A stretch of 64,000 nt of DNA from Christensenellaceae bacterium (GTDB lineage Bacteria > Bacillota > Clostridia > Christensenellales > Borkfalkiaceae): contig JAZLMT010000025.1 of NCBI GenBank assembly GCA_045598745.1, positions 2,062 through 66,061 on the forward strand, given 5' to 3'. Shown here piece after piece: positions 17,757 to 44,467 of this stretch. Positions within the stretch are counted from its first letter, which is position 1, and every line of letters starts with the position of its first letter. Made by a program: the position numbers and the translations under genes. A model generated the notes under the pieces. That model did not search any database. It saw only the letters and a list, made by a program, of their open reading frames with translations, and was not told the origin of the DNA.

Positions 17757-18953
17757 ATGAGTATTTCAAAAAGAGTTAGTAGCATTGCTCCGTCACTCAC
17801 ATTGGAGATAACGGCAAAAGCAAAGAAAATGAAGGCAGAAGGTATTTCCGTCATCGGTTTCGGTGCGGGCGAACCTGACTTTAATACACCGGATTTTATT
17901 ATTGAATCTTGCAAAAAAGCATTAGATATCGGATTTACTAAATATACACCGGCATCAGGAACCGTAGAATTAAAAAAGGCAATTTGTGAAAAGTTTTTAA
18001 AAGATAACGGCTTAACTTATGATATTTCAAATATAGTTATATCTTCTGGCGCAAAATCTTCGTTATTCCATGCAATAAGTGCAATAGTTAATGAAGGTGA
18101 TGAAGTTATTCTTCCTTCGCCTTACTGGTTAACATATCCCGAACTTATTAAACTTGCGGGCGGAAAAGTTGTGCTTGTTACCGCTAAAAAAGAAAATAAT
18201 TATAAGATGACGGCGGAACAGTTTGAAAAGGCAATAACACCTAAAACAAAAGCTTTAATTCTTAATTCTCCAAATAACCCGACGGGTTCTGTTTATAGTG
18301 AAAAAGAAATTAAAGAAATAGCAAAGATATGCGAAAAACATAATATTTACGTTGTTTCCGATGAAATTTACGAAAAACTTGTTTATGACGGCGAAAAGCA
18401 TTATTCAATAGCACAAGTTAGTGAAAATATGAAAAATCATACGGTAGTTATAAACGGTATGAGTAAATCGTATGCAATGACCGGTTGGAGAATAGGTTAT
18501 CTTGCTGCACCAACAGATATTGCAAAAGCAATAGGTAGTATGCAAAGCCATACGGCAAGCAATCCGACTTCGTTTTGTCAATATGCTTCGGTAACGGCTT
18601 TAACCGATAAGAAAGGCGAAGAATTTATCGGTAAAATGCAAAAGATTTTTGATGAAAGAAGAATATATATGTATAACACTCTTAAGTCAATGGATAAATT
18701 AGAACCTATTTGTCCGAAGGGTGCTTTCTACGTATTCGTAAATATTAAAAATTACATAGGCAAATCTTATAACGGAGAAGTTATAACAGGTTCGTTAAAG
18801 TTTGCAGATTTAGCGCTTAAATGTGGGGTTGCTCTTATTCCGGGCGTTGCCTTTGGTGATGATGAAAGTATAAGGCTTTCTTATGCAATTTCACTTGAAG
18901 ATATTAAAGAAGGTTTAGAAAGACTTTCAAAATTTGTTAAGGAGGTAAAGTAA
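17757..18953 (+). CDS. class I PLP-dependent aminotransferase (aspartate aminotransferase-like)
   Basis: GEPDF, NSPNNPTG, SDEIY, and NGMSKSYAMTGWRIGY (PLP lysine). Confidence 0.8.
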   Translation: MSISKRVSSIAPSLTLEITAKAKKMKAEGISVIGFGAGEPDFNTPDFIIESCKKALDIGFTKYTPASGTVELKKAICEKFLKDNGLTYDISNIVISSGAKSSLFHAISAIVNEGDEVILPSPYWLTYPELIKLAGGKVVLVTAKKENNYKMTAEQFEKAITPKTKALILNSPNNPTGSVYSEKEIKEIAKICEKHNIYVVSDEIYEKLVYDGEKHYSIAQVSENMKNHTVVINGMSKSYAMTGWRIGYLAAPTDIAKAIGSMQSHTASNPTSFCQYASVTALTDKKGEEFIGKMQKIFDERRIYMYNTLKSMDKLEPICPKGAFYVFVNIKNYIGKSYNGEVITGSLKFADLALKCGVALIPGVAFGDDESIRLSYAISLEDIKEGLERLSKFVKEVK

Positions 18954-18954
18954 G

Positions 18955-20346
18955 ATGATTTATTTAAATGATAAAACGAATTTGCTTGAAGAAGATGATT
19001 ATCACTATACACTTCAAAACGTAGAAGAACCACAACTATATCGTGAAATATTTGATTATGAACACGTTCCGAAAATAGTATTCAATAATCGCCGTGTTCC
19101 TATGAATATGCCGGAAGAAATTTGGATAACGGATACAACTTTCCGTGACGGGCAACAATCAACATCGCCTTTTACCGTTGAACAAATTGTTGAACTCTTT
19201 AAGATGATGTCTAAACTCGGTGGGAAAAAGGGAATTGTCAGACAATCAGAATTTTTCCTTTATTCAGATAAAGATAGGCGTGCCGCACAAGAATGTATGA
19301 ATCTCGGCTTAAAGTTTCCGGAAGTTACAAGTTGGATTAGAGCAAATAAAAACGATTTTCAACTTGTTAAAGAAATGGGAATGCAAGAAACAGGCGTTTT
19401 GGTAAGTTGTTCCGATTATCATATCTTTAAGAAAATGAATTTAAACAGGGCTCAAGCACTTGAAAAATATTTGGGTATTGTTAAAGACGCTTTATCTGCA
19501 GGGATAAAGCCAAGATGCCACTTTGAAGATATAACAAGAGCGGATTTTTACGGTTTTGTAGTCCCGTTTGCAAGTGAACTTATGAAACTTTCAAAGGAAA
19601 GCGGAATTCCTATAAAAGTTAGGGCTTGTGATACTATGGGATTTGGCGTAAACTTTGTCGGTGCATCACTTCCGAGAAGTGTTCCGGGAATAATTTACGG
19701 ATTAAACCATTATGCAGGTGTTCCTAGCGAAATGCTTGAGTGGCACGGTCATAACGACTTTTATAAGGTTGTTTCAAATGCAACTTCTGCTTGGCTTTAC
19801 GGTTGTGCTTCAGTTAACTGTTCACTTTTGGGTATAGGCGAAAGAACCGGAAACTGTCCGCTTGAAGCAATGGCAATAGAATATGCTTCACTTAAAGGCA
19901 CTTCAGACGGTATGGATTATACGGTAATTACTGATATAGCAAACTATTTTGAAAGAGAAATAGGCTACGTTATTCCTTCAAGAACACCGTTTGTCGGTAG
20001 AAGTTTTAACTCAACGAGAGCAGGTATTCATGCAGACGGAATGCTTAAAGACGAAGAAATTTACAATATATTTGATACGGCAAAATTACTTAATAGGCCA
20101 ATGAACGTTTCAATAAATAATACAAGTGGTTTAGCAGGCATTGCTTACTGGATAAATCAATACTATGAACTTTCCGATGAGCATAAGATAGAAAAATCAC
20201 ATCCTATTGTTTCAAAAATTAAAGAACTTATTGATAAAGAATATGAAGACGGTAGATGTAGCGTTATGGGTGATGATGAACTTGACGCAATGTTAATGGC
20301 TTGTGATAAAGATTTTCATAAAAAATTGTTAATATTAGCGGAATAA
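18955..20346 (+). CDS. homocitrate/isopropylmalate synthase-family enzyme with an intact active site, possibly Re-citrate synthase-like
   Basis: DTTFRDGQQS, HGHNDF (HxH) and GIGERTGNCPLE are intact. No LeuA-type C-terminal regulatory domain. Long N-terminal lead-in before the barrel. Confidence 0.6.
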   Translation: MIYLNDKTNLLEEDDYHYTLQNVEEPQLYREIFDYEHVPKIVFNNRRVPMNMPEEIWITDTTFRDGQQSTSPFTVEQIVELFKMMSKLGGKKGIVRQSEFFLYSDKDRRAAQECMNLGLKFPEVTSWIRANKNDFQLVKEMGMQETGVLVSCSDYHIFKKMNLNRAQALEKYLGIVKDALSAGIKPRCHFEDITRADFYGFVVPFASELMKLSKESGIPIKVRACDTMGFGVNFVGASLPRSVPGIIYGLNHYAGVPSEMLEWHGHNDFYKVVSNATSAWLYGCASVNCSLLGIGERTGNCPLEAMAIEYASLKGTSDGMDYTVITDIANYFEREIGYVIPSRTPFVGRSFNSTRAGIHADGMLKDEEIYNIFDTAKLLNRPMNVSINNTSGLAGIAYWINQYYELSDEHKIEKSHPIVSKIKELIDKEYEDGRCSVMGDDELDAMLMACDKDFHKKLLILAE

Positions 20347-20857: not shown

Positions 20858-20889
20858 AAGAGTTGGATATATATCCAACTCTTTTTTTG
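20858..20889 (+). terminator. rho-independent terminator
   Basis: AAGAGTTGGATAT/ATATCCAACTCTT perfect palindrome followed by TTTTT. Confidence 0.6.
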
Positions 20890-20898
20890 GAGAAAATT

Positions 20899-22380
20899 AT
20901 GAAGTTTATTAGCACTAGAGGAAATTGTTCTTTTCAAAACGCTTCAATGGCAATAGTAAAAGGATTGGCTGACGACGGTGGTTTATGTGTTCCTGAAACT
21001 TTTCCATCTCTTAAAGATAATATCGTAGATATGCTTAATATGGATTATGCAGAAAGGGCAGCTTTTGTTTTAAGTAAATTTCTTGAAGAATATGATTATG
21101 ACGGATTACTTAAAGCTTGTAAAAGTGCTTATTCAAAGTTTGACGATAATGATCCTGCACCACTTGTTAAAATAGACGATAAGACTTTTATTATGGAATT
21201 ATTTCACGGGCCAACACTCGCTTTTAAAGACGTGGCTTTAACAATACTTCCGTATTTGCTTACCGAAGGTGCAAAACATATAGGCATTAAAGAAGAAATT
21301 CTTATTTTGGTTGCTACAAGCGGTGATACGGGTAAGGCAGCGCTTGAAGGATTCAAAGATCAAAAATGTATAAAAATAAACGTTTTTTTCCCGAGTGAAG
21401 GCGTTTCCGATATGCAAAAGATGCAAATGTGCACTCAAGAAGGTGAAAACGTTAACGTTGTTGCTGTTAACGGTAATTTTGACGATTGTCAAACTGCAGT
21501 AAAAAAGATTTTCGGAAGCAGTGATTATAGTAAACAATTAAAAGAAAAAAATATTATTTTATCAAGTGCAAATTCTATCAATTTCGGAAGGTTGGCACCG
21601 CAGATAGTATATTATTTTTCCGCTTATTGTGATTTAGTTAATAATGAAACCGTAAAGATGGGCGATAAGATTGATTTTGTTGTTCCAACAGGTAATTTCG
21701 GCAATATTTTAGCGGGATATTATGCAAAACAAATGGGTTTACCTATAAATAAACTTATTTGTGCATCAAATTCAAATAACGTTTTAACGGAGTTTATTTC
21801 TTGCGGTAATTACGATGCTAATCGTGAATTTTTAAAAACCATGTCTCCGTCAATGGATATTTTAATTTCTTCTAATCTTGAAAGGCTTGTTTTTGAACTT
21901 TCAAATAGAGATGCGAATCTCACCAAAAAGAGAATGGAAGAACTTAAAAAGACGGGTAATTATCAAATAACCGAAAATGAGCTTAAAAAGATGCAAAAAG
22001 ATTTTTCTGCGGATTATTCGGAAGAAGAAGATTGTTTATATACAATTTATAATATATTTGATGAATATGGCTACGTTTTAGATCCGCATACGTCTGTTGC
22101 TATGAATGCTGCACTGTATTATAAACAACAAAACGGCGATAAAAACAATATGGTTATTTTGTCAACTGCAAGCCCGTATAAGTTTACGCAATCAGTTTTG
22201 AAGGCTTTGACTGAAAAGACGGAAAAAGATGCGTTTAAGGCTTCAAATAAACTATATAACGAAACGGCGATGGAAATTCCAAAGCAAATTTCGGAATTAA
22301 AGAATAAAGAAATAAGATTTACTAAAGTTGTAGATAAAGATAAAACTTTTGAAGCAGTTTTAGATTACATAAATAAATAG
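20899..22380 (+). CDS. thrC: threonine synthase (long form)
   Basis: MKFISTRG...GLADDGGLCVPE, and PTLAFKD (PLP lysine). Start moved to ATG 20899 because the track extension overlaps the upstream terminator. Confidence 0.85.
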   Translation: MKFISTRGNCSFQNASMAIVKGLADDGGLCVPETFPSLKDNIVDMLNMDYAERAAFVLSKFLEEYDYDGLLKACKSAYSKFDDNDPAPLVKIDDKTFIMELFHGPTLAFKDVALTILPYLLTEGAKHIGIKEEILILVATSGDTGKAALEGFKDQKCIKINVFFPSEGVSDMQKMQMCTQEGENVNVVAVNGNFDDCQTAVKKIFGSSDYSKQLKEKNIILSSANSINFGRLAPQIVYYFSAYCDLVNNETVKMGDKIDFVVPTGNFGNILAGYYAKQMGLPINKLICASNSNNVLTEFISCGNYDANREFLKTMSPSMDILISSNLERLVFELSNRDANLTKKRMEELKKTGNYQITENELKKMQKDFSADYSEEEDCLYTIYNIFDEYGYVLDPHTSVAMNAALYYKQQNGDKNNMVILSTASPYKFTQSVLKALTEKTEKDAFKASNKLYNETAMEIPKQISELKNKEIRFTKVVDKDKTFEAVLDYINK

Positions 22381-32218: not shown

Positions 32219-33019
32219 ATGGAAATTTTTGATTCACACGCACACATTTATCCGGAAAAAATAGCAGAAAAAGCGACTAAAGCTATAGGCGACTTTTATA
32301 ATTTAAAAATGGAAGAAGATAAAGGAACGCCGTCAAGGCTTATAGAAGTTGGTAAGTATGCAGGAATAAGTAAATACTTGGTGCATTCTTGTGCAACGAA
32401 AAGTAGCCAAGTTCATGCAATAAACGAATTTATTTTGCAAGAAATTACGGTTCATAAAGAATTTATCGGGTTTATGACGCTTCATCAAGACTTGACGATT
32501 GAAGAAATGAAAGAAGAAATACTGTTTTGTAAAGCAAACGGGTTCAAAGGGATAAAACTTCATCCTGACTTTCAAAAATTTGATATTGACTGTGAAGATG
32601 CAGAAAAAATTTATAAAGCCGTTGTTGAAACAAATTGTAATTTTCCGATACTTTTACACATGGGAGATAATAGGTTTGATTTCTCTAAACCGGAAAAACT
32701 TTGCGCTATGGCAAAAAAATATCCAAGCATTACGTTTATCGGGGCTCATTTCGGTGGATATAGATGCTGGGATAATCTTGAGCAGTATAAGGGAATAAAT
32801 AATATTTACTTTGATACAAGTTCGTCTTTGGATTTTATAGGAAGTAAAAGGGCGAAAGAATTAATTGAATTTTTTGGTGTAGATAAATTTTTCTTTGGAA
32901 CGGATTTTCCTATGTGGTCACCGAAAGATGAATTAAAAAGATTTTTTGATATCGGTTTAACAAACGAAGAAAACGAAAAGATACTATCAAAAAACCTTAA
33001 AAAATTACTGAATATTTAA
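32219..33019 (+). CDS. amidohydrolase-2 / TIM-barrel metal-dependent hydrolase family protein
   Basis: DSHAH N-terminal metal motif, KLHP, LLHMG, GAHFGG and GTDFPMW. Confidence 0.65.
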   Translation: MEIFDSHAHIYPEKIAEKATKAIGDFYNLKMEEDKGTPSRLIEVGKYAGISKYLVHSCATKSSQVHAINEFILQEITVHKEFIGFMTLHQDLTIEEMKEEILFCKANGFKGIKLHPDFQKFDIDCEDAEKIYKAVVETNCNFPILLHMGDNRFDFSKPEKLCAMAKKYPSITFIGAHFGGYRCWDNLEQYKGINNIYFDTSSSLDFIGSKRAKELIEFFGVDKFFFGTDFPMWSPKDELKRFFDIGLTNEENEKILSKNLKKLLNI

Positions 33020-33041: not shown

Positions 33042-33070
33042 TTGACAAAATTTTAGTCTTTTAGTATAAT
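33042..33070 (+). promoter_or_regulatory. consensus sigma-A promoter of the T-box operon
   Basis: TTGACA (33042-33047), 17-nt spacer, TATAAT (33065-33070). Confidence 0.7.
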
Positions 33071-33077
33071 ATACTAA

Positions 33078-33303
33078 AGACTGTGAAGGAAATAAGTTGT
33101 CAACCTTTTTTATTAAGAGAGTCGGTGGTTGGTGTGAACTGATTAAAAAATGATAACGCGCTCGTTCCGGAGTTGATTTGGTGAACTTTAGTAGCTGAAT
33201 TCGGGTAATTCCGTTAAAGATTTTGAGTGATTGCCTTTTGGCAATAATACGGGTGGTACCGCGGTTAATTCGTCCCTAAATAATTTTTTAGGGATTTTTT
33301 TGT
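33078..33303 (+). promoter_or_regulatory. T-box leader (tRNA-sensing transcription attenuator), probable Leu CUC specifier
   Basis: AGAGAG (33116-33121); distal-loop GGTGGTTGGTGTGAA; candidate specifier CTC followed by G (33161-33164); AGTAG; F-box CCGTTA (33211-33216); stem III ATTGCC-TTTT-GGCAAT (33230-33245); T-box AATACGGGTGGTACCGCGG (33246-33264); terminator TCCCTAAA-N6-TTTAGGGA plus T-run (33273-33303). Confidence 0.85.
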
Positions 33304-33320
33304 TTTTATTAGGAGTTTTT

Positions 33321-34712
33321 ATGAAAAACATCAAGATAATTGACGTATCTTTAAGGGAAATTCAATCTTCAAACGAATCGTTAAGTTTTAAGGAAAAGTT
33401 GGAAATAGCCAAAAAACTTGACGAATTAAACGTAGACGTTATTGAATTCGGTAATATTTGTGAAAAGGCTGATGAAGTTTTAATTAAGACTTTATCAACT
33501 TGTTTGACAAAATCAACGTTAGGATTAGTTGTAGACGGGAAGGTGAAAGACTTAAAGAAGTCCTATTCACTTGTTTCGCTTGCCAAAAAGAAAAAACTTA
33601 TAATAAAAATGCCGGTTTCTCCGATAAATATGGAATATTCTTTTCACTTAAAGCCGGCAGTTATATTAAAGAATTTTGAAGAACTTATAAAAAACGCTGT
33701 TTTAATTTGTGAAGACGTTGAAGTTCATTTTGAAGATTCTACCAGGGCAGAAAACGAATTTTTAATAAATGCAATAAAAACCGTTTTAAGTTTAGGGGTT
33801 AAATCAATAACGCTTTCCGATCAAACGGGGACAATGGAACCAAACGAGTTCAAAGAATTTATAGAGAATATTATTACTTTGGTTCCTGAAATAAAAAGCG
33901 TTGATTTGTTTGTTGAATGTTGTGATTTATTCAGAATGGCAACTTCGTCTATTATCAATGTTTTACCGAGTATTTCCGGTGTAAAGCTTTCAGCACTTAA
34001 TACATGTTGTTTGCCGGATTTTGAACATTTCTTTTCGGCACTTAACTATATCGGCGAAAAGAAAGGGTATTCTTCTAAAATAAATAAAACTTGCATTTCA
34101 AGGGTTGTTGGGCAAATATTGAATATTTCTTCTTCAAAAGCACAATCCGTTAACGATCAAGAAGAAACAGTAGAAAATATTTCAAAGAAGATAACGCTTA
34201 ATGCACTCACGAAACTTCTAAAAAAACGGGGGTATGATTTAACGGGAGAAGATATTTCTAAAATTTATGAAGAAATTTTAAGAATAGGCGAAAAGAAAGA
34301 TTTAACTACAAAAGAGCTTGATTCTATAGTTGCCGTAACGGCACTTCAAGTTCCGGCTACTTACGAGCTAAAAAATTATGCCGTTCACTCAAGCAACGTT
34401 TTATCTTCAACGGCAAACGTAACTTTAATAAAAAATAAAAATAGCGAAATAAACGGAATTGCGTTTGGAAACGGTTCGGTTGATTCTGCGTTTTTGGCAA
34501 TAGAAAATGCTCTTGGCCGTCATTTTGATCTTGATGAATTTTCACTTAACAGTGTTACCGAAGGTAAAGAAGCAATGGGTGAAACTATAATCAAGTTAAG
34601 AAATAACGGAAAGATTTATTCAGGTAGGGGTGTTTCTACCGATATTGTCGGTGCAAGTATAAAGGCTTATATAAACGCTTTAAACAAAATTGTATACGAG
34701 GAAAAAGAATAA
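33321..34712 (+). CDS. divergent 2-isopropylmalate synthase (LeuA) paralogue: catalytic motifs degenerate, C-terminal LeuA regulatory domain conserved
   Basis: IDVSLREIQSS replaces DTTLRDGEQS. VECCDLF replaces HxHND. GIGERAGN is absent. The C-terminus GNGSVDSAF...GKEAMGETIIKL...GKIYSGRGVSTDIVGASIKAYINALNKI matches the LeuA allosteric domain closely. AGGAG RBS plus ATG at 33321. Confidence 0.7.
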   Translation: MKNIKIIDVSLREIQSSNESLSFKEKLEIAKKLDELNVDVIEFGNICEKADEVLIKTLSTCLTKSTLGLVVDGKVKDLKKSYSLVSLAKKKKLIIKMPVSPINMEYSFHLKPAVILKNFEELIKNAVLICEDVEVHFEDSTRAENEFLINAIKTVLSLGVKSITLSDQTGTMEPNEFKEFIENIITLVPEIKSVDLFVECCDLFRMATSSIINVLPSISGVKLSALNTCCLPDFEHFFSALNYIGEKKGYSSKINKTCISRVVGQILNISSSKAQSVNDQEETVENISKKITLNALTKLLKKRGYDLTGEDISKIYEEILRIGEKKDLTTKELDSIVAVTALQVPATYELKNYAVHSSNVLSSTANVTLIKNKNSEINGIAFGNGSVDSAFLAIENALGRHFDLDEFSLNSVTEGKEAMGETIIKLRNNGKIYSGRGVSTDIVGASIKAYINALNKIVYEEKE

Positions 34713-37219
34713 TGCAATTATCATTTTCAACAAATGGTTGGAATTTAGATTTTAACAACTTAATAAAATTGTGCGTTGAAAATAAGATTTGCGGTCTTGA
34801 AATTCACGATATAAATGCCGATTGTTTTAATAACGGTAATCCTTTTATCAGGGAAAATATTAACAAAACAAAAAAGGCACTTTTTGAAAATAATATTTCA
34901 ATTTCTTGCTTTGATTTGAAAACGAATTTTGCTACTGTTTGTGAAAACGATTGTATCGTTAAAGAAATTGAAAATCTTATTTCGGTTGCAAACGAAATAA
35001 ATTGTAAATATATTCGTTTGCATGCTTTTGAATATGAAAAATATAACGAAAAGGTTTTTTATAAAAAAGCAAATGAATATTTAACCGGCTTAATAGAATA
35101 CGCAAAGAAGAAAAACGTTACCATTTTGTTTGAAACTATGGGTATTTTTTCTGACACGAAGGTTTTAGGGGATTTTCTAGGCAGTTTTGCAGACGATAAC
35201 CTTTCTTCTGTTTGGGACGTGCATAATACTTTCAGATTTGCAAACGAAAATCCAAACGTAACTGTTCAAAATTTAGGTAAAAATATAAAGCATATTCATA
35301 TAAAGGACAGTTTGATTGTAAACGGCAAAGTAAATTATTGTTTTTTGGGTGAAGGAGATTTGCCTGTAAAAGAAATAATAAAATCACTTATGTCTATCAA
35401 CTATGAAGGATATATTTCTTTGGAAGTTATTCCAGATTGGCTAGGTTCTTTAGGTGATGAAAATATTGTTTTACCACAATTTTCAAGTTATATGTCTTCG
35501 TTTGATATGGCACCGGCTTGGCAAAAGAAATTGTTTTTAAATAAATCGGGAACAGGTAAATTTATTTGGGCAAAAGATATTTTAATAGAAAAAACTTGCT
35601 CTCAAGTTTTAGATAGAGTTGCTTTAGATTTTCCTGATCAAGTTGCGTTTAAATATACGACTTTGGATTACACGAGAACTTATAAAGAATTTAGAGATGA
35701 AGTTGACGTTGTAGCAAGGGCATTGATGAGCGTTGGCGTTAGATCTGGTGATCACGTTGCCGTTTGGGCAACTAACGTTCCGGAATGGTTTTTGGTTTTC
35801 TGGGCAACGACAAAAATCGGGGCAGTTTTGGTTTCTGTTAATACTGCTTATAAATCACATGAAATAGAGTATCTTTTAAGACAATCTGATACGCATACTT
35901 TATTTATTATTGACGGATATAGGGATAGCAATTATGCTGAAATAATCAATGAATTATGTCCTGAACTTAAGAAAAATAAAAAAGGAAGTCCACTTCACGC
36001 AAAGCGTCTTCCTTTCCTTCGCAACGTTATAACAATCGGTTTTTCTCAAAGTGGTTCGCTTAATTTCAGTGAGTTTATGAATATGGCGAAACTTGTTTCG
36101 TATGAAGAAATGAAAGCCGTTGCTAACAGTGTAAAGATAAATGACGTTTGTAATATGCAATATACTTCGGGAACGACAGGTTTTCCAAAAGGGGTAATGC
36201 TCACACATTATAACATTATGAACAACGGTAAGTGCATAGGTGACAGAATGGATTTGTCAACGGCGGATAGAATGATGATTCAAGTTCCTATGTTCCATTG
36301 TTTCGGTATGGTTTTATCTATGATTGCGGCAATCACGCACGGCGTAACGATTTGTCCGCTTCCGTATTTTTCACCGAAGCCTGCACTTCAATGTATTAAT
36401 CAAGAGAGAATAACTTGTTTTCATGGCGTTCCTACAATGTTTATTGCGCTTTTATCTCACGCTGATTTTGCAAAAACGGATTTTTCATTTATGAGAACGG
36501 GAATAATGGCGGGAAGCCCTTGTCCTGTTTCCGTTATGCAAGACGTTTTGAATAAAATGAATATGAAAGAAATAACTATCGTTTACGGTCAAACGGAAGC
36601 TTCGCCTGGTTGCACAATGAGTTCAACTACCGATAGTGTGGACGTTAGAGTTAATACTGTTGGCGGTCCGCTTCCAAACGTAGAGTGCAAGATAGTTAAT
36701 CCGGAAACTAATGAAGAATTGCCGATAAACACCGTTGGTGAATTTGTTGCACGTGGCTATAACGTTATGAAAGGTTATTACAAAATGCCTATTGAAACTG
36801 CTAAAACCATTGATGAAGACGGTTGGCTTCATACGGGCGACCTTGCGTTAAAGACGGAAGAAGGCAATTTTAGAATTACGGGTAGATTGAAAGATATGAT
36901 TATCCGTGGCGGTGAAAACTTATATCCTAAAGAGATAGAAGATTTCTTATATACGCACCCGAAAATATCAGACGTTCAAGTTGTTGGTGTTCCTGATGAA
37001 AAATATGGTGAAGAAGCGTATGCTTTCATTATATTAAAGGAAAATCAAACGTTAACGGAAGAAGAATTAAGAAAATATTGTAACGAAAGAATAGCAAAAC
37101 ATAAAGTTCCGAGATATTTTGATTTTGTGGATAGTTTTCCTATGAACGTTGCAGGAAAAATTCTCAAATATAAAATGAGAGAAGATGCAGAAAATAAAAT
37201 AAAAAGCAATAGGAAATAA
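34712..37219 (+). CDS. fusion protein: xylose-isomerase-like TIM barrel (sugar-phosphate isomerase/epimerase family) plus AMP-forming acyl-CoA ligase
   Basis: N-terminal ~270 aa carry LFET, WDVHN, HIHIKD and SLEV, as in AP-endonuclease-2/xylose-isomerase-like barrels. The C-terminus has YTSGTTGFPKGVMLTH, YGQTE, WLHTGD, GRLKDMIIRGGENLYP and the terminal GKILK lysine motif. Confidence 0.75.
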   Translation: MQLSFSTNGWNLDFNNLIKLCVENKICGLEIHDINADCFNNGNPFIRENINKTKKALFENNISISCFDLKTNFATVCENDCIVKEIENLISVANEINCKYIRLHAFEYEKYNEKVFYKKANEYLTGLIEYAKKKNVTILFETMGIFSDTKVLGDFLGSFADDNLSSVWDVHNTFRFANENPNVTVQNLGKNIKHIHIKDSLIVNGKVNYCFLGEGDLPVKEIIKSLMSINYEGYISLEVIPDWLGSLGDENIVLPQFSSYMSSFDMAPAWQKKLFLNKSGTGKFIWAKDILIEKTCSQVLDRVALDFPDQVAFKYTTLDYTRTYKEFRDEVDVVARALMSVGVRSGDHVAVWATNVPEWFLVFWATTKIGAVLVSVNTAYKSHEIEYLLRQSDTHTLFIIDGYRDSNYAEIINELCPELKKNKKGSPLHAKRLPFLRNVITIGFSQSGSLNFSEFMNMAKLVSYEEMKAVANSVKINDVCNMQYTSGTTGFPKGVMLTHYNIMNNGKCIGDRMDLSTADRMMIQVPMFHCFGMVLSMIAAITHGVTICPLPYFSPKPALQCINQERITCFHGVPTMFIALLSHADFAKTDFSFMRTGIMAGSPCPVSVMQDVLNKMNMKEITIVYGQTEASPGCTMSSTTDSVDVRVNTVGGPLPNVECKIVNPETNEELPINTVGEFVARGYNVMKGYYKMPIETAKTIDEDGWLHTGDLALKTEEGNFRITGRLKDMIIRGGENLYPKEIEDFLYTHPKISDVQVVGVPDEKYGEEAYAFIILKENQTLTEEELRKYCNERIAKHKVPRYFDFVDSFPMNVAGKILKYKMREDAENKIKSNRK

Positions 37220-37223
37220 AGAT

Positions 37224-37799
37224 ATGGATACTGCTTTATTGGTTTGTTTAATAACATCATCGTTGTCTATTTTAACTTTTGTCGTTACTTTCATTTTTAA
37301 TTTATCATCGAATAAAAGTAATAACACTAAAGATATTATTGTAAAACAGAGAGTGAAAACTTTAGATAATTACAGATGTTCTTGTAAGGATTTTTTAGCT
37401 TTGATTAAGCCTGAAGTTATAGATGATTTCAAGAAAAACAAAGAAAAAAAAATGATATATACTTTGGAATTATCAAAAGCAAAATCTTCACTTGATTTGA
37501 TTTTAAAACCTTTTTTCGAGACTGAAGAAAAAATAAATAATTTAACTGATAAAATCGTAAAATTATGTTTTTTGTATTATAGTAATCCAAACGAAAAAAG
37601 CAAATTGGAAATTGAAGAATTGTCAAATGAGTTATTAGTTTTGTTTTCTTTGTATGATTGGGCATACTGGAGATTTATTCAAGAACAAAAAGACGGAATT
37701 TTAAAAGATGATAACGGTTCTTTCGATAAGAATTACAATGACGTTTTAGAGAGTGTTGTTAGTTTAGAAAAAAAATATATAAATTTAATAAAAAAATAG
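37224..37799 (+). CDS. hypothetical protein with N-terminal TM anchor and helical K/E-rich body (no recognisable family)
   Basis: MDTALLVCLITSSLSILTFVVTFIF anchor. Visibly more AT-rich than its neighbours. 4 nt after the upstream stop. Confidence 0.4.
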   Translation: MDTALLVCLITSSLSILTFVVTFIFNLSSNKSNNTKDIIVKQRVKTLDNYRCSCKDFLALIKPEVIDDFKKNKEKKMIYTLELSKAKSSLDLILKPFFETEEKINNLTDKIVKLCFLYYSNPNEKSKLEIEELSNELLVLFSLYDWAYWRFIQEQKDGILKDDNGSFDKNYNDVLESVVSLEKKYINLIKK

Positions 37800-37809
37800 A
37801 GGTATTATT

Positions 37810-38880
37810 ATGCAAGAGATTAAAATTACAAAGGCAAAAGTTTTGAAAGAAAAACCAGATTATTCAAAACTTGGTTTCGGCAAATATTTTACCGATCATA
37901 TGTTTATGATGGATTATACGCCAGAAAAGGGTTGGTATGATGCAAGGATTATTCCATACGGCAATCTTTCAATCAATCCGGCAACAACTGTTTTACACTA
38001 TGGCGTAGAAATTTTTGAAGGATTAAAAGCTTATAGAACAGAAGACGGTTATCAATTATTCCGTCCTTATGAAAACTTTAAGAGAATGAACGATTCTGCC
38101 GAGAGATTATCACTTCCACAAGTTGACGTTGATTTTTGTGTAGAAACATTAAAAACTTTGATAAATATTGATTACGATTGGATTCCGAAAGATTTAGGAA
38201 CTTCGCTTTATATTCGTCCGTTTATGTTCGGTAGTGACGAAGCTTTGGGTGTTCACGCAGTTAAAAATGCAACTTTCGTTATAATTTTATCACCTGTTGG
38301 CAGTTATTATGCCGGTGGTTTAGCACCTGTTAAAATCGGTATTGAAAGTCAAGACGTTAGGGCTGTTCGTGGCGGAACGGGTTATGCAAAATGCGGTGGA
38401 AATTACGCAGCATCTCTCCGTGCAGATAAAAAGGCATCGGCAAAAGGTTTTTCTCAAGTTTTATGGCTTGACGGCGTAGAAAGAAAGTATATTGAAGAAG
38501 TTGGCGCTATGAACGTTATGTTCAAAATAAAGGGTGAAATTATTACGCCGAAACTTATCGGCTCGGTTCTTCCTGGTATTACAAGAAAATCAATTCTTGA
38601 GATTTTGAAAGATTGGGGATATAAGGTTACCGAAAGATTGTTCTCTGTTGACGAATTAATAAAGGCTGCTAAAAAAGGCACGCTTGAAGAAGCTTGGGGA
38701 ACGGGAACGGCTGCAGTTGTTTCACCGATAGGCCTTCTTTCTTATCTTGATAAAGACTATACGATTTCTAATAATCAAATAGGTGAATTAACTCAAAAAC
38801 TTTATGATGAACTTACCGGAATTCAATGGGGTTTAAGAGAAGATACTCATAATTGGATCGTTAAAGTTAAGGTTAAATAA
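37810..38880 (+). CDS. ilvE: branched-chain amino acid aminotransferase (fold type IV)
   Basis: FGKYFTDHMF, VLHYGVEIFEGLKAYR, and GGTGYAKCGGNYAAS (PLP lysine region). Confidence 0.9.
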   Translation: MQEIKITKAKVLKEKPDYSKLGFGKYFTDHMFMMDYTPEKGWYDARIIPYGNLSINPATTVLHYGVEIFEGLKAYRTEDGYQLFRPYENFKRMNDSAERLSLPQVDVDFCVETLKTLINIDYDWIPKDLGTSLYIRPFMFGSDEALGVHAVKNATFVIILSPVGSYYAGGLAPVKIGIESQDVRAVRGGTGYAKCGGNYAASLRADKKASAKGFSQVLWLDGVERKYIEEVGAMNVMFKIKGEIITPKLIGSVLPGITRKSILEILKDWGYKVTERLFSVDELIKAAKKGTLEEAWGTGTAAVVSPIGLLSYLDKDYTISNNQIGELTQKLYDELTGIQWGLREDTHNWIVKVKVK

Positions 38881-39542
38881 TGGAGCATAAAAGGGTTACT
38901 ATATTTTCGGGGCATTACGGAAGCGGAAAGACAAACGTTTCGGTAAATTATGCAAAGGAACTGAAAAGATTAGGTAAACAAGTCAGTATTTTTGATTTAG
39001 ATATTGTTAATCCGTATTTTAGAACGGTTGACGCCAAAGCCGATTTGGAAAGTAACGGAATAGAACTTATTGTTTCGCCTTATGCGGAAACGAACGTAGA
39101 TATTCCGGCGATGAACGCAATGTCGTATAAAATCAATGATGATAAAAGTAAATTTGCCGTTATTGATTTGGGTGGTGATGACAGAGGCGCTTTGGCACTC
39201 GGTAGATTTTCTCAAAAAATACTTGAAGAAAACAACTATGAATTTGTTTACGTTGTAAATACTTTTAGGCCGGAAACAAGAAATATTGAAGGTTTAGAAG
39301 AAATTAAAGAAGAAATTGAAAGTGTTGCTAAAATGAAATTTACCGCAATCGTCAACAACACGAATCTTTCAACCGAAACGACTTTAGAAGATATAGAGAA
39401 CAGTTTTAAGTTAGTAACGGAATTTAGTAAAAAATATAATCTTCCTATACTTTTTACATCAGTTAGGCGAGATTTATATAATAAAGAACAAAAAAAAGAA
39501 AAATATCTTCCCCTTGATTTAATAAAATACGGGGAATGGTAG
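38880..39542 (+). CDS. SIMIBI-class (MinD/ParA/CobQ-like) P-loop ATPase, function unknown
   Basis: Walker A GHYGSGKT and Walker B AVIDLGGDD. The start codon shares one base with the ilvE stop. Confidence 0.55.
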   Translation: MEHKRVTIFSGHYGSGKTNVSVNYAKELKRLGKQVSIFDLDIVNPYFRTVDAKADLESNGIELIVSPYAETNVDIPAMNAMSYKINDDKSKFAVIDLGGDDRGALALGRFSQKILEENNYEFVYVVNTFRPETRNIEGLEEIKEEIESVAKMKFTAIVNNTNLSTETTLEDIENSFKLVTEFSKKYNLPILFTSVRRDLYNKEQKKEKYLPLDLIKYGEW

Positions 39543-39552
39543 AGGAGAAATA

Positions 39553-39759
39553 ATGGCAAAAGTAACTTTTGACGTAGATCGTTGCAAGGGTTGTGGCTTA
39601 TGCGTAAGCGTTTGCCCAAAAAAAATTATAAGACTAGCAAAAGAAAAAATTAACAAAAAAGGGTATCATCCTGCAGAAATGACAGATCAAGCAAGTTGTA
39701 TTGCTTGTGCATTTTGCGCAACTATGTGCCCGGATACAGTTATCACTGTAGAGAAATAG
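39553..39759 (+). CDS. 2-oxoacid:ferredoxin oxidoreductase delta subunit (2x[4Fe-4S] ferredoxin)
   Basis: CKGCGLCVSVCP and CIACAFCATMCP motifs. 68 aa. Confidence 0.8.
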   Translation: MAKVTFDVDRCKGCGLCVSVCPKKIIRLAKEKINKKGYHPAEMTDQASCIACAFCATMCPDTVITVEK

Positions 39760-39768
39760 GAGGAGATT

Positions 39769-40839
39769 ATGGCTGAAAAAGTTTTAATGAAAGGTAACGA
39801 AGCTTTGGCTGAAGCTGCTATAATGGCAGGTTGCAGACATTATTTCGGTTATCCTATCACACCACAAACGGAAGTTGCCGCATATATGAGTAAGCGTATG
39901 CCTAAAATCGGCGGTGTATTCCTTCAAGCTGAATCTGAAGTTGCCGCTATCAATATGGTTATCGGTGTATCGGCTTGCGGAAAGAGAGTAATGACAAGTA
40001 GTAGTAGCCCTGGAATTTCACTAAAGAGCGAAGGTATTTCATACCTTGCAGGTTGTGAACTTCCTGCGCTAATCGTAAACGTTCAAAGGGGTGGCCCTGG
40101 TCTTGGTGGTATTCAACCTTCACAATCAGACTACTTTCAAGCAACGAAGGGTGGTGGACACGGCGACTATAAGTTGTTGGTTTTAGCACCTGCATCAGTT
40201 CAAGAAATGGTTGATTTAACGGTTAAAGGTTTTGACCTTGCCGATAAATACAGAATGCAAACTATGTTGTTGGCTGACGGAACAATGGGACAAATGATGG
40301 AACCTGTTTCGTTAGAAGTCCCAACGCAAAAGGTTTACGATAAGCCTTGGGCAACAACGGGAACTGCTAATCACGAAGGTAGAAACATTATAAATTCTTT
40401 AAGTTTAACACCTGCACAACTTGAACAATGGAATATTTCAAGATTTGAAAGATATAAAATTGTTGAAGAAAACGAAGTTATGTATGAAGAATTTATGATG
40501 GATGATGCAGATATTTGTATCGTTGCATTCGGTATTGCTTCAAGAGTTTCTAAAAATGCAATTTTAGAAGCTAGAAAACAAGGAATTAAAGTCGGATTGC
40601 TTCGTCCTATTACGTTATGGCCTTTCCCAAAGAAAGCATTAAAAGAAGCAAGTAAAAAGGTTAAATCTTTCCTTTCAGTTGAACTCAATATGGGGCAAAT
40701 GATTGATGACGTTAAACTTGCAATTGATTGCAGTAAACCTGTTTACTTGTGTAATAGAACCGGTGGCGTTATTATGTCAACGGATGAAGTATTAAATAAA
40801 ATTATTGAAATAACAAAAGGGGAGGCAAAGGCATGGTAG
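39769..40839 (+). CDS. 2-oxoacid:ferredoxin oxidoreductase alpha subunit
   Basis: MKGNEALAEAAIMAGCRHYFGYPITPQTE and the downstream layout typical of Kor/Vor alpha subunits. Confidence 0.85.
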   Translation: MAEKVLMKGNEALAEAAIMAGCRHYFGYPITPQTEVAAYMSKRMPKIGGVFLQAESEVAAINMVIGVSACGKRVMTSSSSPGISLKSEGISYLAGCELPALIVNVQRGGPGLGGIQPSQSDYFQATKGGGHGDYKLLVLAPASVQEMVDLTVKGFDLADKYRMQTMLLADGTMGQMMEPVSLEVPTQKVYDKPWATTGTANHEGRNIINSLSLTPAQLEQWNISRFERYKIVEENEVMYEEFMMDDADICIVAFGIASRVSKNAILEARKQGIKVGLLRPITLWPFPKKALKEASKKVKSFLSVELNMGQMIDDVKLAIDCSKPVYLCNRTGGVIMSTDEVLNKIIEITKGEAKAW

Positions 40840-41579
40840 TTTTTGAAAAGACTAAGGGCTTAACGGATAATGAACTTCATTATTGCCCGGGTTGTACACA
40901 TGGTATAATTCATAGATTAGTTGCAGAATGCCTTGAAGAATTGGGCGTTTTAGACAGAACGGTTGGCGTTGCTTCGGTTGGTTGTTCGGTTTTCTCGTAT
41001 AACTATTTCAATTGTGATATGATTCAAGCAGCGCACGGTAGAGCACCTGCAGTTGCAACGGGCGCTAAAAGAGCAAACCCGAATAATATCGTATTTACGT
41101 ATCAAGGTGACGGTGACCTTGCTGCTATCGGAACGGCTGAAACAGTTCACTCTGCCGGTCGTGGTGAAAATATCACGGTAATATTTGTAAACAATGCTAT
41201 TTACGGTATGACCGGTGGTCAAATGGCACCTACAACACTTCCAAATCAAGTAACACAAACTTCACCTTACGGTAGAGACGTTACCGTTGTTGGTTATCCG
41301 ATTAAAGTATGTGAAATGCTTTCTCAAGTAGACGGCGCAGGATATCTTGAAAGGGTTGCAGTTAATAACGTTAAGAACATTAAAAATGCAAAAAAGGCAA
41401 TTATGCATGCGTTTAAGAACCAGATTGAAGGCAAAGGATTTTCTCTTATAGAAGTTCTTTCAACTTGCCCGACAAACTGGGGCTTAGCACCACAAGATGC
41501 AATTAAGTGGCTTGATGAAAATATGGAAACATATTATCCTTTAGGTGTTTATAAAGATAAATACAAGGAGGAAAAATAA
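40833..41579 (+). CDS. 2-oxoacid:ferredoxin oxidoreductase beta subunit (TPP-binding)
   Basis: YCPGCTHG, GDGDLAAIG and NNAIYGMTGGQ TPP motifs. Confidence 0.85.
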   Translation: MVVFEKTKGLTDNELHYCPGCTHGIIHRLVAECLEELGVLDRTVGVASVGCSVFSYNYFNCDMIQAAHGRAPAVATGAKRANPNNIVFTYQGDGDLAAIGTAETVHSAGRGENITVIFVNNAIYGMTGGQMAPTTLPNQVTQTSPYGRDVTVVGYPIKVCEMLSQVDGAGYLERVAVNNVKNIKNAKKAIMHAFKNQIEGKGFSLIEVLSTCPTNWGLAPQDAIKWLDENMETYYPLGVYKDKYKEEK

Positions 41580-41580
41580 T

Positions 41581-42120
41581 ATGACAGAAGCAAAAATGTT
41601 AATAGCTGGCTTTGGTGGACAAGGTATTTTGTTCACCGGAAAGGCTATTGCTTATACAGGCTTAAAAATCGGCAAAGAAGTAAGTTGGTTACCTTCTTAC
41701 GGACCGGAAATGAGAGGCGGAACGGCAAATTGTTCAGTAACGATTTCCGATACGCCGATAGGTTCTCCAATCGTAGAAAAACCGAATATACTTATTGCTA
41801 TGAACCTACCATCTTTAGAAAAGTATTATAACGATACCGAAAAGGGTGGATATATAATATATGACAGTTCACTCATTAGCAAGCAGGATACCAGAGATGA
41901 TGTTACCACCATTGGTATTCCTGCGACAAAACTTGCAAGTGATAACGAACTTGGTGGACTGGCAAATATGATTATCTTGGGTAAAGTATTACAAGCAACA
42001 AAAATACTTACACTAGATCAAGTTAAGAGCAGTCTATCGCAAATGATTCCTGCAAAACGTGCAGAAATGTTAGAAAAAAATATTAAGGCGATAGAATTGG
42101 GCTTTGAGTTCAAGGAGTAA
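41581..42120 (+). CDS. 2-oxoacid:ferredoxin oxidoreductase gamma subunit
   Basis: [10 protein letters not shown] and [10 protein letters not shown] motifs. ATG 41581 follows a GGAGG-type RBS. Confidence 0.85.
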
Positions 42121-42124
42121 AATA

Positions 42125-42676
42125 ATGAAAGAACAGTTAATAGAAATGGGGCTTCGTCTTGCTGACTTAAGAGAAACAAAAGATGTTTCGCAAGAAGAAA
42201 TTGCTGAAAGACTTAATATTCCACTTGAAGAATATCAAGCATACGAAAACGGTGAAAGAGATTTTTCTTTCAGTTTTATGTATAATGTAGCAACAATTTT
42301 GGAAGTTGACGTTTTTAATTTACTTTCAGGAACTTCTCCTAAACTAAACGACTGTGCAGTTGTTAGGCGTGGGCACGAATTTTATATAAAAAAAGAAGGT
42401 GCCTACGACTATAAACATCTTGCATACACGTTCAAAAATAAAAAAGCAGAACCTTTCTTTGTAAGTTGTGAACCGGGTGAAGAGGATAAAGAACTTCATA
42501 GCCACGAAGGTCAAGAATTTAACTTTATTCTTTCGGGTAAAATGTTATTTAAGATCGGTTCAATGTCTTATGAACTTAATAAGGGTGATAGCGTATATTT
42601 TAATTCAAAAATTCCACACGGAATTAAAGTTTTAGGCGATACACCGGTTAAGTTTCTTGCTTTTGTAATGAAATAA
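42125..42676 (+). CDS. XRE-family HTH transcriptional regulator with C-terminal cupin domain
   Basis: N-terminal HTH_3 pattern LRLADLRETKDVSQEEIAERLNIPLEEYQAYENGE. C-terminal cupin HSHEGQEFNFILSG...GDSVYF...PH. Confidence 0.8.
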   Translation: MKEQLIEMGLRLADLRETKDVSQEEIAERLNIPLEEYQAYENGERDFSFSFMYNVATILEVDVFNLLSGTSPKLNDCAVVRRGHEFYIKKEGAYDYKHLAYTFKNKKAEPFFVSCEPGEEDKELHSHEGQEFNFILSGKMLFKIGSMSYELNKGDSVYFNSKIPHGIKVLGDTPVKFLAFVMK

Positions 42677-42701: not shown

Positions 42702-44423
42702 ATGGTAATTTACGAAAAGTTTATCGGTAGAACAAGAGATTCTTTTACCGATTTAAACGACTTAAGACAAAATTTTAAAATTGAATATCCAAATAATTTC
42801 AACTTTGCGTATGACGTAATTGATGAATTAGGCAAAACAAAACCAAAAAAGCTTGCTATGATTTGGCTTTCTAAAACCATGGAAGAAAAGAGATTTACTT
42901 TTTCCGATATGATGATTTGGTCAAATAAGGCTGCAAATTATTTTAAAAGTGAAGGTATTAAAAAAGGCGACAGAGTTTTACTTGTCCTTAAGAGAAGTTA
43001 TTTATTCTGGTTTGCTATGCTTGGGCTTCATAAGATAGGTGCGATTCCTGTTCAAGCAACTAATATGCTTGTAGGGCATGACTTTACCTACCGTTGCAAT
43101 AAAGGTGCAATTAAAGCTGTTATAATGACTGGTGATGATGACGTTACGGAACATTTTGATGACGTTTGGGCAAAATGTCCAACCGTTACAAAGAAATACG
43201 TAACTAAACATAAAAAGCCTGTCGGTGGCTGTTGGATTGATTTTGAAGAAGGTTTAGAAAAGGCTAGTGAAGATTGGGTGCGCCCTACAGGTGAAGACGC
43301 AACGACTGTTAACGACGTAATGCTTATGGCGTTTACTTCGGGAACGACAGGATATCCAAAGATGATTAAACATGATTTTAGATATCCTTTAGGTCATATT
43401 ATGACTGGCGTTTTTTGGCATAGAGTTGTCAACGGAGGCTTACATTTCACCATTTCTGATACGGGCTGGCTTAAATCTTTATGGGGCAAATTCTATGGCC
43501 AATGGTTTGGTGAATCTGCCGTTTTGGTTTACGACTTTGATAAGTTTGATGCTAAAGAAATACTTGAAATTCTAGAAAAATATAAGGTAACTACTTTCTG
43601 TGTTCCACCAACAATGTATAGATTTATTCTTCAACAAGACGTTGCAAAATATAATCTTTCAAGTCTAACAAACTGCTGTTCTGCAGGTGAAGCCTTAAAT
43701 GCAGATATTTATAACAAGTGGAAACAATTTACGGGTTTAGATATTTATGAAGGTTTTGGGCAAACGGAAACAACTCTTTGTTTAGGCACGCTAAAAGGTT
43801 TTGCAACGCCGATTTCAGGTTTTATAGGAACGCCTATTCCGGGTTATGAAATTTCTATCAAAAATGCTGAAGGGGTAGATTGTTTACCTGGTGAAGAAGG
43901 CGAAATTTGTATTAAAGGCACTTTGGCAAATAAGCCTTGCGGTGTTTCATGCGGATATCACGATGATGAAGAAAGTATGGCTAAATCATGGAAAGACGGA
44001 TATTTTCACACAGGTGATACGGCTTATTTTGATGAACACGGGCTTATTAAATATATAGGAAGAAATGATGACGTTATAAAGTCGTCAGGATACCGTATAG
44101 GGCCTTTTGAAGTTGAAAGCGTTTTAATGGAACATCCTGCCGTTTTAGAAGTTGCGGTAACCGGCTATCCTGATGCAAAACGTGGTTTTTGTGTTAAAGC
44201 AACAATCGTATTAAAAAAAGGATATATTCCGAGTGACGAGCTTAAATTAGAGCTTCAAACGTTTGTAAAACATAATACAGCACCTTATAAATATCCAAGA
44301 ATTATTGAGTTTGTTGATTCTCTTCCAAAAACCATTAGCGGTAAAATAAAGAGAACGGAAATTCGTGATAGAGATATTGAGAATTATAAAAAACTTTTAG
44401 AAATAAAAACTATAACTGAATAA
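42702..44423 (+). CDS. AMP-forming acyl-CoA synthetase, medium-chain (ACSM/MACS-like) type
   Basis: FTSGTTGYPKMIKH, YEGFGQTE, YFHTGD, GRNDDVIKSSGYRIGP and SGKIKR. Confidence 0.8.
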   Translation: MVIYEKFIGRTRDSFTDLNDLRQNFKIEYPNNFNFAYDVIDELGKTKPKKLAMIWLSKTMEEKRFTFSDMMIWSNKAANYFKSEGIKKGDRVLLVLKRSYLFWFAMLGLHKIGAIPVQATNMLVGHDFTYRCNKGAIKAVIMTGDDDVTEHFDDVWAKCPTVTKKYVTKHKKPVGGCWIDFEEGLEKASEDWVRPTGEDATTVNDVMLMAFTSGTTGYPKMIKHDFRYPLGHIMTGVFWHRVVNGGLHFTISDTGWLKSLWGKFYGQWFGESAVLVYDFDKFDAKEILEILEKYKVTTFCVPPTMYRFILQQDVAKYNLSSLTNCCSAGEALNADIYNKWKQFTGLDIYEGFGQTETTLCLGTLKGFATPISGFIGTPIPGYEISIKNAEGVDCLPGEEGEICIKGTLANKPCGVSCGYHDDEESMAKSWKDGYFHTGDTAYFDEHGLIKYIGRNDDVIKSSGYRIGPFEVESVLMEHPAVLEVAVTGYPDAKRGFCVKATIVLKKGYIPSDELKLELQTFVKHNTAPYKYPRIIEFVDSLPKTISGKIKRTEIRDRDIENYKKLLEIKTITE

Positions 44424-44440
44424 AAAAATCAGAAAAAAGA

Positions 44441-44467
44441 AAGCCTTTTTATAGAAGGCTTTTTTTG
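44441..44467 (+). terminator. rho-independent terminator ending the 11-kb operon
   Basis: AAGCCTT-N7-AAGGCTT followed by TTTTTT. Confidence 0.6.

Follow-up and report, generated by a model that had tools for sequence, protein, structure and literature searches.

A LeuA-like pseudoenzyme with a conserved leucine-regulatory domain is coupled to an acyl-CoA ligase fusion and may act as its leucine sensor

Introduction

What does a bacterium do with a relative of 2-isopropylmalate synthase (IPMS, LeuA; EC 2.3.3.13) that has degenerate catalytic motifs and a strongly conserved leucine-regulatory domain? This question is raised by a gene at positions 33321-34712 (plus strand) of a stretch of 64,000 nucleotides from a Christensenellaceae bacterium (GenBank assembly GCA_045598745.1, contig JAZLMT010000025.1, positions 2,062 to 66,061), here termed the window; all coordinates are window positions unless stated otherwise. 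A first-pass annotation, made from the sequence alone, had read the product as a possible leucine sensor or pseudoenzyme, which could be a leucine-responsive regulatory subunit, its gene overlapping that of a ligase fusion, or alternatively as a barrel with altered metal or substrate chemistry. We report that loss of the catalytic residues is a property of the whole family, that the gene forms an invariant unit with that of an acyl-CoA ligase fusion, and that most loci lie behind leucine-specific leader RNAs. A role as leucine sensor of the ligase is the reading we favour, at about an even chance.

The LeuA-like barrel has lost its catalytic residues

The LeuA-like gene encodes 463 amino acids (aa) between an ATG at 33321 and a stop codon at 34710-34712, with a ribosome-binding site (AGGAG) at 33311-33315; a longer version starting from a TTG at 33231 is not credible and would fall within the T-box leader described below. 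The protein comprises a degenerate DRE-TIM (HMGL-like) barrel (aa 1-280, 33321-34160), a linker retaining helical subdomain II alone (aa 281-327, 34161-34301) and a LeuA_dimer regulatory domain (34302-34691), all encoded on the plus strand. Pfam HMGL-like (PF00682, 103 bits) matches aa 4-208, corresponding to profile positions 2-202 of 260 only, and LeuA_dimer (PF08502, E-value 2e-31) matches aa 328-457 over profile positions 2-130 of 131, thus as a full domain. The eight-strand barrel fold is complete: a family profile aligns aa 3-274 to residues 12-286 of 3rmj, the single-chain AlphaFold2 (AF2) model has a mean predicted local distance difference test score (pLDDT) of 86.7 with values of ~90 in the barrel, and Foldseek superposes the model on the LeuA barrel 3ewb with a template modelling (TM) score of 0.91 and a root-mean-square deviation of 1.9 Å. 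The model further superposes on full-length Mycobacterium tuberculosis LeuA, including the leucine-bound structure 3fig. All NCBIfam LeuA equivalog models match, each at less than half of its cut-off (cut-offs 532-748); the best of them, NF002086, reaches 245.9 bits against a cut-off of 532 and is split into two stretches. The C-terminal half matches LeuA models, not those of citramalate synthase (CimA). The LeuA architecture is preserved in this protein, subdomain I excepted.

Alignment to solved LeuA structures places LREI-QSS where LRDGEQS is expected, VECCDLFRMA where HCHxDLGLA is expected and SDQTG in the place of PDTVG; the EDATR motif is retained, as EDSTR. GIGERAGN is gone in the alignment with E. 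coli LeuA, the family having variable residues and a gap at this point. Subdomain I (the 'AFAHSSGIHQDG' region with the motif HxSGIHxDG), which supplies the catalytic His, is deleted relative to E. coli LeuA. Metal ligands, the conserved Arg-Asp pair and GIGERAGN are all missing from the barrel, and the metal-ligand positions, Asp/His/His in LeuA, are occupied in the window copy by E13, E199 and C201.

Residue frequencies were computed per site over 119 relatives aligned with E. coli LeuA. The position of the metal ligand D14 holds Glu in 35, Thr in 22, Ala in 10, Leu in 9, Asn in 8 and Val in 8; that of H202 holds Gln (37), Gly (23), Ser (20) or Glu (13), and that of H204 mainly Ser (93), with Asn in 10 and Cys in 6. 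Lys (52) and Arg (51) share the R13 position, which is Arg in the window copy; in M. tuberculosis IPMS, the single substitutions R80K or R80A abolish activity (PMC10464499). The pocket positions H97, N167 and P169 vary, and S139 is partly kept (Ser in 70 of the 119). D8, E42, E134, D139, R142, D167 and G170 are invariant in the barrel and common to all LeuAs, and may for that reason be structural. Loss of the catalytic residues is family-wide, the catalytic positions being unconstrained among the relatives, and it is close to certain that the protein is not an isopropylmalate synthase. The substitutions named in the first-pass annotation (LREIQSS for LRDGEQS, ECC for HxH, no GIGERAGN) were all seen in the alignments to LeuA, and its pseudoenzyme reading is strongly supported and extended by the freedom of these positions across the family.

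Conservation centres on the regulatory domain

The regulatory domain, with its motifs GNGSVDSAF, GKEAMGE and SGRGVSTDIVGASIKAY, is the best-conserved region of the protein: mean pairwise identity is 0.67 here, compared with 0.51 in the first and 0.34 in the last part of the barrel. The asymmetry that the first-pass annotation had noticed in one copy is thus real and family-wide, and its assignment of the last ~120 aa to the C-terminal regulatory and dimerisation domain of LeuA agrees with the PF08502 match. G420, which aligns with E. coli G462, is Gly in 116 of the 119 relatives; E. coli leuA(G462D) is a standard feedback-dysregulated allele (PMC6345581). A sequence search with the regulatory domain alone against solved structures gave no match, and the E. 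coli G462 position was the one point used to relate the domain to leucine feedback.

Relatives are widespread. When a single genome was scanned for each species, at least 591 species genomes proved to carry one, the hosts being rumen and gut Clostridia such as Oscillospiraceae, Acutalibacteraceae, Faecousia, Ruminococcus and Lachnospiraceae. Protein searches returned more than 120 full-length relatives of ~465 aa with 42-82% identity, nearly all from uncultured Clostridia and publicly named 'hypothetical protein' or 'alpha-isopropylmalate synthase regulatory domain-containing protein'. In a representative search, ~115 clusters at 50% identity gave full-length, single-stretch matches of 350-673 bits; ordinary LeuAs (~500 aa) ranked below them, with at most 332 bits in two stretches. 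Selection is centred on the regulatory domain, and the gene is conserved, not decaying.

The LeuA-like gene is coupled to an acyl-CoA ligase fusion

The partner gene (34712-37219, plus strand) starts within the stop codon of the LeuA-like gene, forming the TAATG overlap already described in the first-pass annotation. Its 835-aa product matches Pfam AP_endonuc_2, AMP-binding and AMP-binding_C, and consists of a xylose-isomerase-like TIM barrel (XI-TIM; aa 1-265, 34712-35506), a disordered linker, and an AMP-forming acyl-CoA ligase (aa 286-835) delimited by Pfam and an AF2 model. PRK12583 matches the fusion protein with 705 bits, under its cut-off of 832.

The fusion gene lies directly downstream in all 77 loci that were picked via the LeuA-like gene and have downstream DNA. 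The two genes overlap by 4 nt (ATGA) in 34 loci and are separated by -1 to 7 nt in most others; coupling extends to members just 30% identical (L090, L091), and starting the search from the fusion protein recovered the LeuA-like pairing in both cases inspected. Genes for a branched-chain aminotransferase (ilvE), a 2-oxoacid oxidoreductase (vor), a P-loop protein, a helix-turn-helix (HTH)-cupin regulator with a second ligase, and an Amidohydro_2 protein are often near, in varying order and orientation, and the pair persists where vor and ilvE are rearranged or absent (e.g. L092). Because these other neighbours vary in order, orientation and presence, the LeuA-like gene and the fusion gene together constitute the invariant unit.

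Distance matrices from 70 loci show that the LeuA-like barrel diverges in parallel with the XI-TIM domain (r = 0.77; partial r = 0.63 when controlling for the ligase domain), and less so with its own regulatory domain (r = 0.60). We take this correlated divergence as a weak hint of barrel/XI-TIM contact. The XI-TIM domain looks like a barrel of the ketose 3-epimerase type, D-tagatose 3-epimerase being the closest solved sequence (E-value 2e-5), and its metal ligands are mostly kept (E141 in 62, D169 in 60, H196 in 72 and E238 in 66 of 72 sequences). Two of the four are lost (E141K, D169N) in ~14% of orthologues, so that a catalytic role of XI-TIM appears doubtful in at least some lineages. Stand-alone XI-TIM relatives, considered as a clue to function, proved uninformative, having an unrelated MerR/flavodoxin context.

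Leucine-specific leader RNAs precede most loci

A sigma-70-type promoter (33042-33070; TTGACA, 17 nt spacer, TATAAT; 12 of 12 consensus matches) drives the leader and the operon. The leader is a T-box RNA (33074-33280) that scores 136.9 bits with Rfam RF00230, for which the gathering score is 93. It has stem I, the specifier CUC (Leu) at 33161-33163, the T-box/antiterminator sequence GGGUGGUACCGCG at 33251-33263 and an intrinsic terminator (33272-33305, also delimited as 33272-33295; 9-bp stem followed by a T-run); all these elements lie on the plus strand. The LeuA-like gene is the first gene behind the leader, which agrees with the Leu-type T-box seen in the first-pass annotation. A strict T-box motif was found upstream in 60 of 84 loci, and the specifier column of 59 aligned leaders reads CTC in 52 and CTG in 7, both Leu codons, an exchange that leaves the coded amino acid unchanged. 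In three further loci the T-box departs slightly from this motif and the specifier is again CTC or CTG, raising the total to 63 of 84, and Rfam independently confirmed the T-box in 4 other loci. The proposed link of the pseudoenzyme to the ligase and to leucine is supported by the constant downstream position of the fusion gene and by these leaders.

In one locus (L065), the block of HTH-cupin regulator, second ligase, P-loop protein, vor and ilvE genes has a further T-box in front of it, at locus positions 2318-2564, whose specifier is GUA (Val). This arrangement suggests that a single cluster for assimilating branched-chain fatty acids has distinct arms, one responsive to Val and one to Leu. 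Given the CTC/CTG specifiers and the GUA specifier, the cluster answers branched-chain amino acid starvation and the LeuA-like/ligase pair answers leucine specifically.

Other leader types occur in loci that have no T-box. In L039 and L048, the region ~200 nt ahead of the LeuA-like start codon (position 10001 of the locus) has a short Leu-rich open reading frame (ORF; e.g. MLKIKFFSLTSLLNAILLLSVVF*) and, behind it, a terminator-like hairpin; this leader may act by leucine-responsive leader-peptide attenuation. A further T-box-less group, mostly from Acutalibacteraceae (L004, L007, L008, L016, L024, L031, L036, L047, L055, L060 and L061), has in common a promoter located ~100 nt before the LeuA-like gene and followed by the palindrome ACTTATAGTGCATAAGT and by a conserved hairpin (GCATATTCCGTCAGGAAATGC); these elements are probably a protein operator or another type of leader.

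Genes of the surrounding operon

The operon, with all its genes on the plus strand, includes all the enzyme types needed to turn isovalerate into leucine, namely an acyl-CoA ligase, a VorB-type oxidoreductase and IlvE. Between the fusion gene and ilvE lies an ORF of 191 aa (37224-37799) whose product has a hydrophobic N-terminus and matches no family; the related loci examined lack it here, and it is probably a lineage-specific insertion. Branched-chain amino acid aminotransferase IlvE (37810-38880) matches NF009897 with 473 bits against a cut-off of 307. It is followed by a CbiA/ParA-type P-loop NTPase gene (38880-39542), conserved between ilvE and the oxidoreductase genes; in orthologous loci too, this protein is consistently encoded just upstream of the oxidoreductase delta gene, and may serve in maturation or as an accessory protein.

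The 2-oxoisovalerate-type 2-oxoacid:ferredoxin oxidoreductase (VOR; 39553-42120) has four subunits, recognised from Pfam matches and, for delta, from its ORF: delta (39553-39759, 68 aa, two [4Fe-4S] clusters), alpha (VorB; 39769-40839; NF005507, 546 bits against a cut-off of 399), beta (40833-41579) and gamma (41545-42120). An HTH_3 plus cupin regulator (42104-42676), always paired with the second ligase, precedes that second short-chain acyl-CoA ligase (42702-44423). The best match of the latter is MbcS, the staphylococcal methylbutyryl-CoA synthetase (NF047394, 408 bits, below the equivalog cut-off of 850); ligases of the MbcS type activate branched short acids (PMC10026030, PMC11167679). 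A palindromic hairpin at 44440-44462 (no strand assigned) is the likely end of the operon. Because no convincing plus-strand terminator was found between the leader and this hairpin, the leader may control eleven genes, from the LeuA-like gene to the second ligase.

A gene upstream of the T-box (32219-33019, plus strand) encodes an Amidohydro_2 protein whose HxH...D metal motif is intact. Within the annotated part of the window (~16.7-60 kb), no canonical leuABCD genes were seen.

A candidate leucine sensor and its alternatives

The explanation to which we give an even chance is that the pseudoenzyme is a leucine-sensing regulatory partner of an isovalerate-activating ligase fusion; from the evidence above, we infer leucine binding, contact with the fusion, inhibition of the ligase and isovalerate as its substrate. 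The LeuA-like protein would still dimerise and bind leucine through its regulatory domain. Protein and ligase fusion would be made in matched amounts and then assemble, with the degenerate barrel most likely docking on the XI-TIM domain. The ligase would convert isovalerate to isovaleryl-CoA, VOR would turn this into 2-oxoisocaproate by reductive carboxylation, and IlvE would transaminate 2-oxoisocaproate to leucine. Transcription would be turned on via the Leu-specifier T-box when tRNA-Leu is uncharged, and once leucine is plentiful again, its binding to the regulatory domain would stop the first reaction, the one that consumes ATP. The pathway could thereby be under two levels of control, a fast protein-level brake and a slower T-box switch.

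Several observations weigh against such a sensor. With subdomain I deleted, the protein lacks the path along which the leucine signal travels to the active site in LeuA (Tyr410 in M. tuberculosis IPMS), and any output must therefore use a new interface. The XI-TIM domain keeps its metal ligands in ~85% of copies, yet the three-step pathway does not need it; nor does it need the intact Amidohydro_2 protein, whose gene adjoins the LeuA-like/ligase pair, upstream or downstream, in ~24 related loci. The module may accordingly do further chemistry, or XI-TIM and Amidohydro_2 may be structural domains. The invariant barrel residues D8, E42, E134, D139, R142 and D167 may mark a residual ligand site, and the co-evolution signal may be inflated, since both domains are fast-evolving. 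About a quarter of the loci have other leaders in place of the T-box, one divergent member (P0362, L089) stands alone, and the best 150 representatives include none in which the LeuA-like protein and its partner are naturally fused. It is because XI-TIM, Amidohydro_2, the lost signal route and the loci without a T-box fit poorly that we place the sensor model no higher.

Among the alternatives, a structural subunit without any sensing function survives best, although we regard it as unlikely. Here, the LeuA-like protein would be a scaffold or assembly factor, for example dimerising the ligase fusion or tethering it to the oxidoreductase, and leucine would play no role at the protein level. The invariant gene coupling with overlapping stop and start codons, the co-variation of barrel and XI-TIM domain, and the fact that PF08502 is also a dimerisation domain are all consistent with a scaffold. 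However, the regulatory-domain motifs are what the family conserves most strongly, among them the residue aligned with E. coli G462, mutation of which abolishes leucine feedback (PMC6345581), and dimerisation alone would not require LeuA-specific motifs to be held at 67% identity while the barrel drifts.

We judge it less probable still, and distinctly so, that the barrel has acquired a new, possibly metal-independent chemistry and acts with XI-TIM and Amidohydro_2 on an intermediate that feeds leucine synthesis. The six invariant residues just listed lie at the catalytic face of the barrel, the window copy has Glu/Glu/Cys at the three metal positions, and putative enzymes without an assigned step travel along with the gene. 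Against this, relatives do not share the residues that stand in for the metal ligands, the Arg and the substrate pocket, conservation is lowest in the second half of the barrel (34% identity), and subdomain I, which in LeuA provides the catalytic His and closes the acetyl-CoA site, is missing; the invariant residues are those conserved in all LeuAs, as noted above. Because the residues at the three metal positions vary among relatives, Glu/Glu/Cys was rejected as a new metal site characteristic of the family, and the altered-metal barrel offered in the first-pass annotation as an alternative is unlikely.

A leucine-responsive regulator of gene expression, binding the leader RNA, DNA or a transcription factor instead of the ligase, seems very improbable to us. 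Such a function would suit a first gene behind a leucine-responsive leader, and a quarter of the loci use other leaders, including one with a conserved palindrome; yet domain and model searches of the LeuA-like protein detected no nucleic-acid-binding domain, and adjacency to or overlap with the ligase gene, whatever the leader, points to a protein partner. Finally, a genuine isopropylmalate synthase with merely shifted motifs, or a decaying pseudogene, is effectively excluded: LeuA models are the best database matches and some relatives are named '2-isopropylmalate synthase', but pairwise, profile and structural alignments put the degenerate residues exactly at the catalytic positions, scores are far under the curated cut-offs, no leuBCD genes lie nearby, either in the annotated part of the window or in the 10-kb flanks of the other loci, and hundreds of species retain the gene with its reading frame unbroken.

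The leucine-sensor model bears on an old question of rumen physiology. Branched-chain volatile fatty acids are required by many fibre-degrading anaerobes of the rumen and gut, which convert isovalerate to leucine, and leucine synthesis from isovalerate by carboxylation is well established in the rumen (PMC7356843). The conversion has been known from labelling for decades, and we found no paper assigning to it a defined, regulated gene set. The module described here is a candidate for such a set: it has a switch that responds to leucine starvation and a protein that may sense leucine, and it is found in hundreds of uncultured species. More broadly, the pseudoenzyme might be the allosteric leucine sensor of a widespread module (LeuA-like protein, XI-TIM-fused isovalerate-CoA ligase, VOR and IlvE) that would be the genetic basis of leucine synthesis by reductive carboxylation and a second, independent case of the principle embodied by HisZ; we put this wider reading forward tentatively, at somewhat less than an even chance. 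If the sensor role is true, a feedback-regulated enzyme has been reduced to its regulatory half and joined to the unrelated enzyme of a pathway's first step. Hundreds of proteins from metagenome-assembled genomes that are now called 'hypothetical protein' or '2-isopropylmalate synthase' could be annotated correctly, and metabolic models that take the LeuA-like gene for LeuA would be wrong in predicting leucine synthesis de novo.

Relation to known systems

HisZ is a catalytically inactive HisRS paralogue that serves as regulatory subunit and makes short-form HisG histidine-sensitive. The logic proposed here is the same, a dead paralogue acting as end-product sensor of the first committed, ATP-consuming enzyme, and the LeuA-like protein is likewise a paralogue without catalytic residues and yet conserved under selection. 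Fold and ancestry are unrelated, and the HisZ complex and its histidine response are experimental findings, whereas sensing by the LeuA-like protein is deduced from gene coupling and conservation.

With LeuA itself, in its short bacterial form (E. coli, Neisseria meningitidis 3RMJ, Listeria 3EWB), the protein shares DRE-TIM barrel, subdomain II and LeuA_dimer domain in the same order, the motifs SxKEKLxIA, EDxTR, xDxxG, GNGPxDA, GKxAxG and STDIxxxSxxAY, and control by a leucine-responsive leader. Unlike LeuA, it is without the Asp/His/His site, the conserved Arg-Asp, GIGERAGN and subdomain I, is ~50 aa shorter, fails all equivalog cut-offs, and is encoded beside an acyl-CoA ligase fusion and never beside leuBCD. 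Plant methylthioalkylmalate synthase (MAM, 6E1J) is also derived from LeuA by loss of one functional module; MAM kept catalysis and lost the regulatory domain, whereas the LeuA-like family is the mirror image. CimA of Leptospira (3F6G/3F6H) has a homologous, isoleucine-binding regulatory domain, and 3f6g is a weak profile match; in contrast to CimA, the C-terminal half of the protein described here matches LeuA models, and the RNA switch is Leu-specific, not Ile-specific.

The enzyme types of the operon fit the rumen route from isovalerate to leucine, and its second ligase is MbcS-like. Literature searches found for this route no dedicated leucine-regulated module, LeuA-like subunit or XI-TIM-fused ligase, and nothing on the LeuA-like family, a LeuA pseudoenzyme, the pathway genes or the gene cluster. 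Regulatory subunits derived from dead paralogues and T-box-controlled amino-acid operons are known as such; this instance and its pathway context appear to be new.

Related Claisen synthases and further LeuA lineages

The window contains a second LeuA relative at 18955-20346, located between genes for an aminotransferase (17757-18953) and threonine synthase (20863-22380). Its product reads FRDGQQS, HGH and GIGERTGN, has no LeuA_dimer domain, and is matched best by models of homocitrate/citramalate synthase-type enzymes, all below their cut-offs. The first-pass annotation had described this paralogue as keeping all motifs: the catalytic set is indeed kept, but the first motif reads RDGQQ, not RDGEQ, and the regulatory domain is missing. 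By its sequence signature, the protein is best described as a related Claisen synthase of the homocitrate/citramalate synthase type and not as a second LeuA.

Two other LeuA lineages, P0368 (L087, 8001-9536 in the locus) and P0385 (L088), combine good regulatory domains with partly degenerate motifs (TLCDGEQ and IRAYNDLG; VCCRNDLG); P0368 is encoded behind a T-box and ahead of an aconitase-family (LeuC-like) gene. Loss of catalytic residues from LeuA may thus have happened more than once. Proteins in which LeuA_dimer is joined to a TGT fragment, a receiver, MFS, MBOAT or Laminin_G domain (P0380, P0382, P0384, P0388 and P0397) are probably chimeras of assembly or gene calling and were not used.

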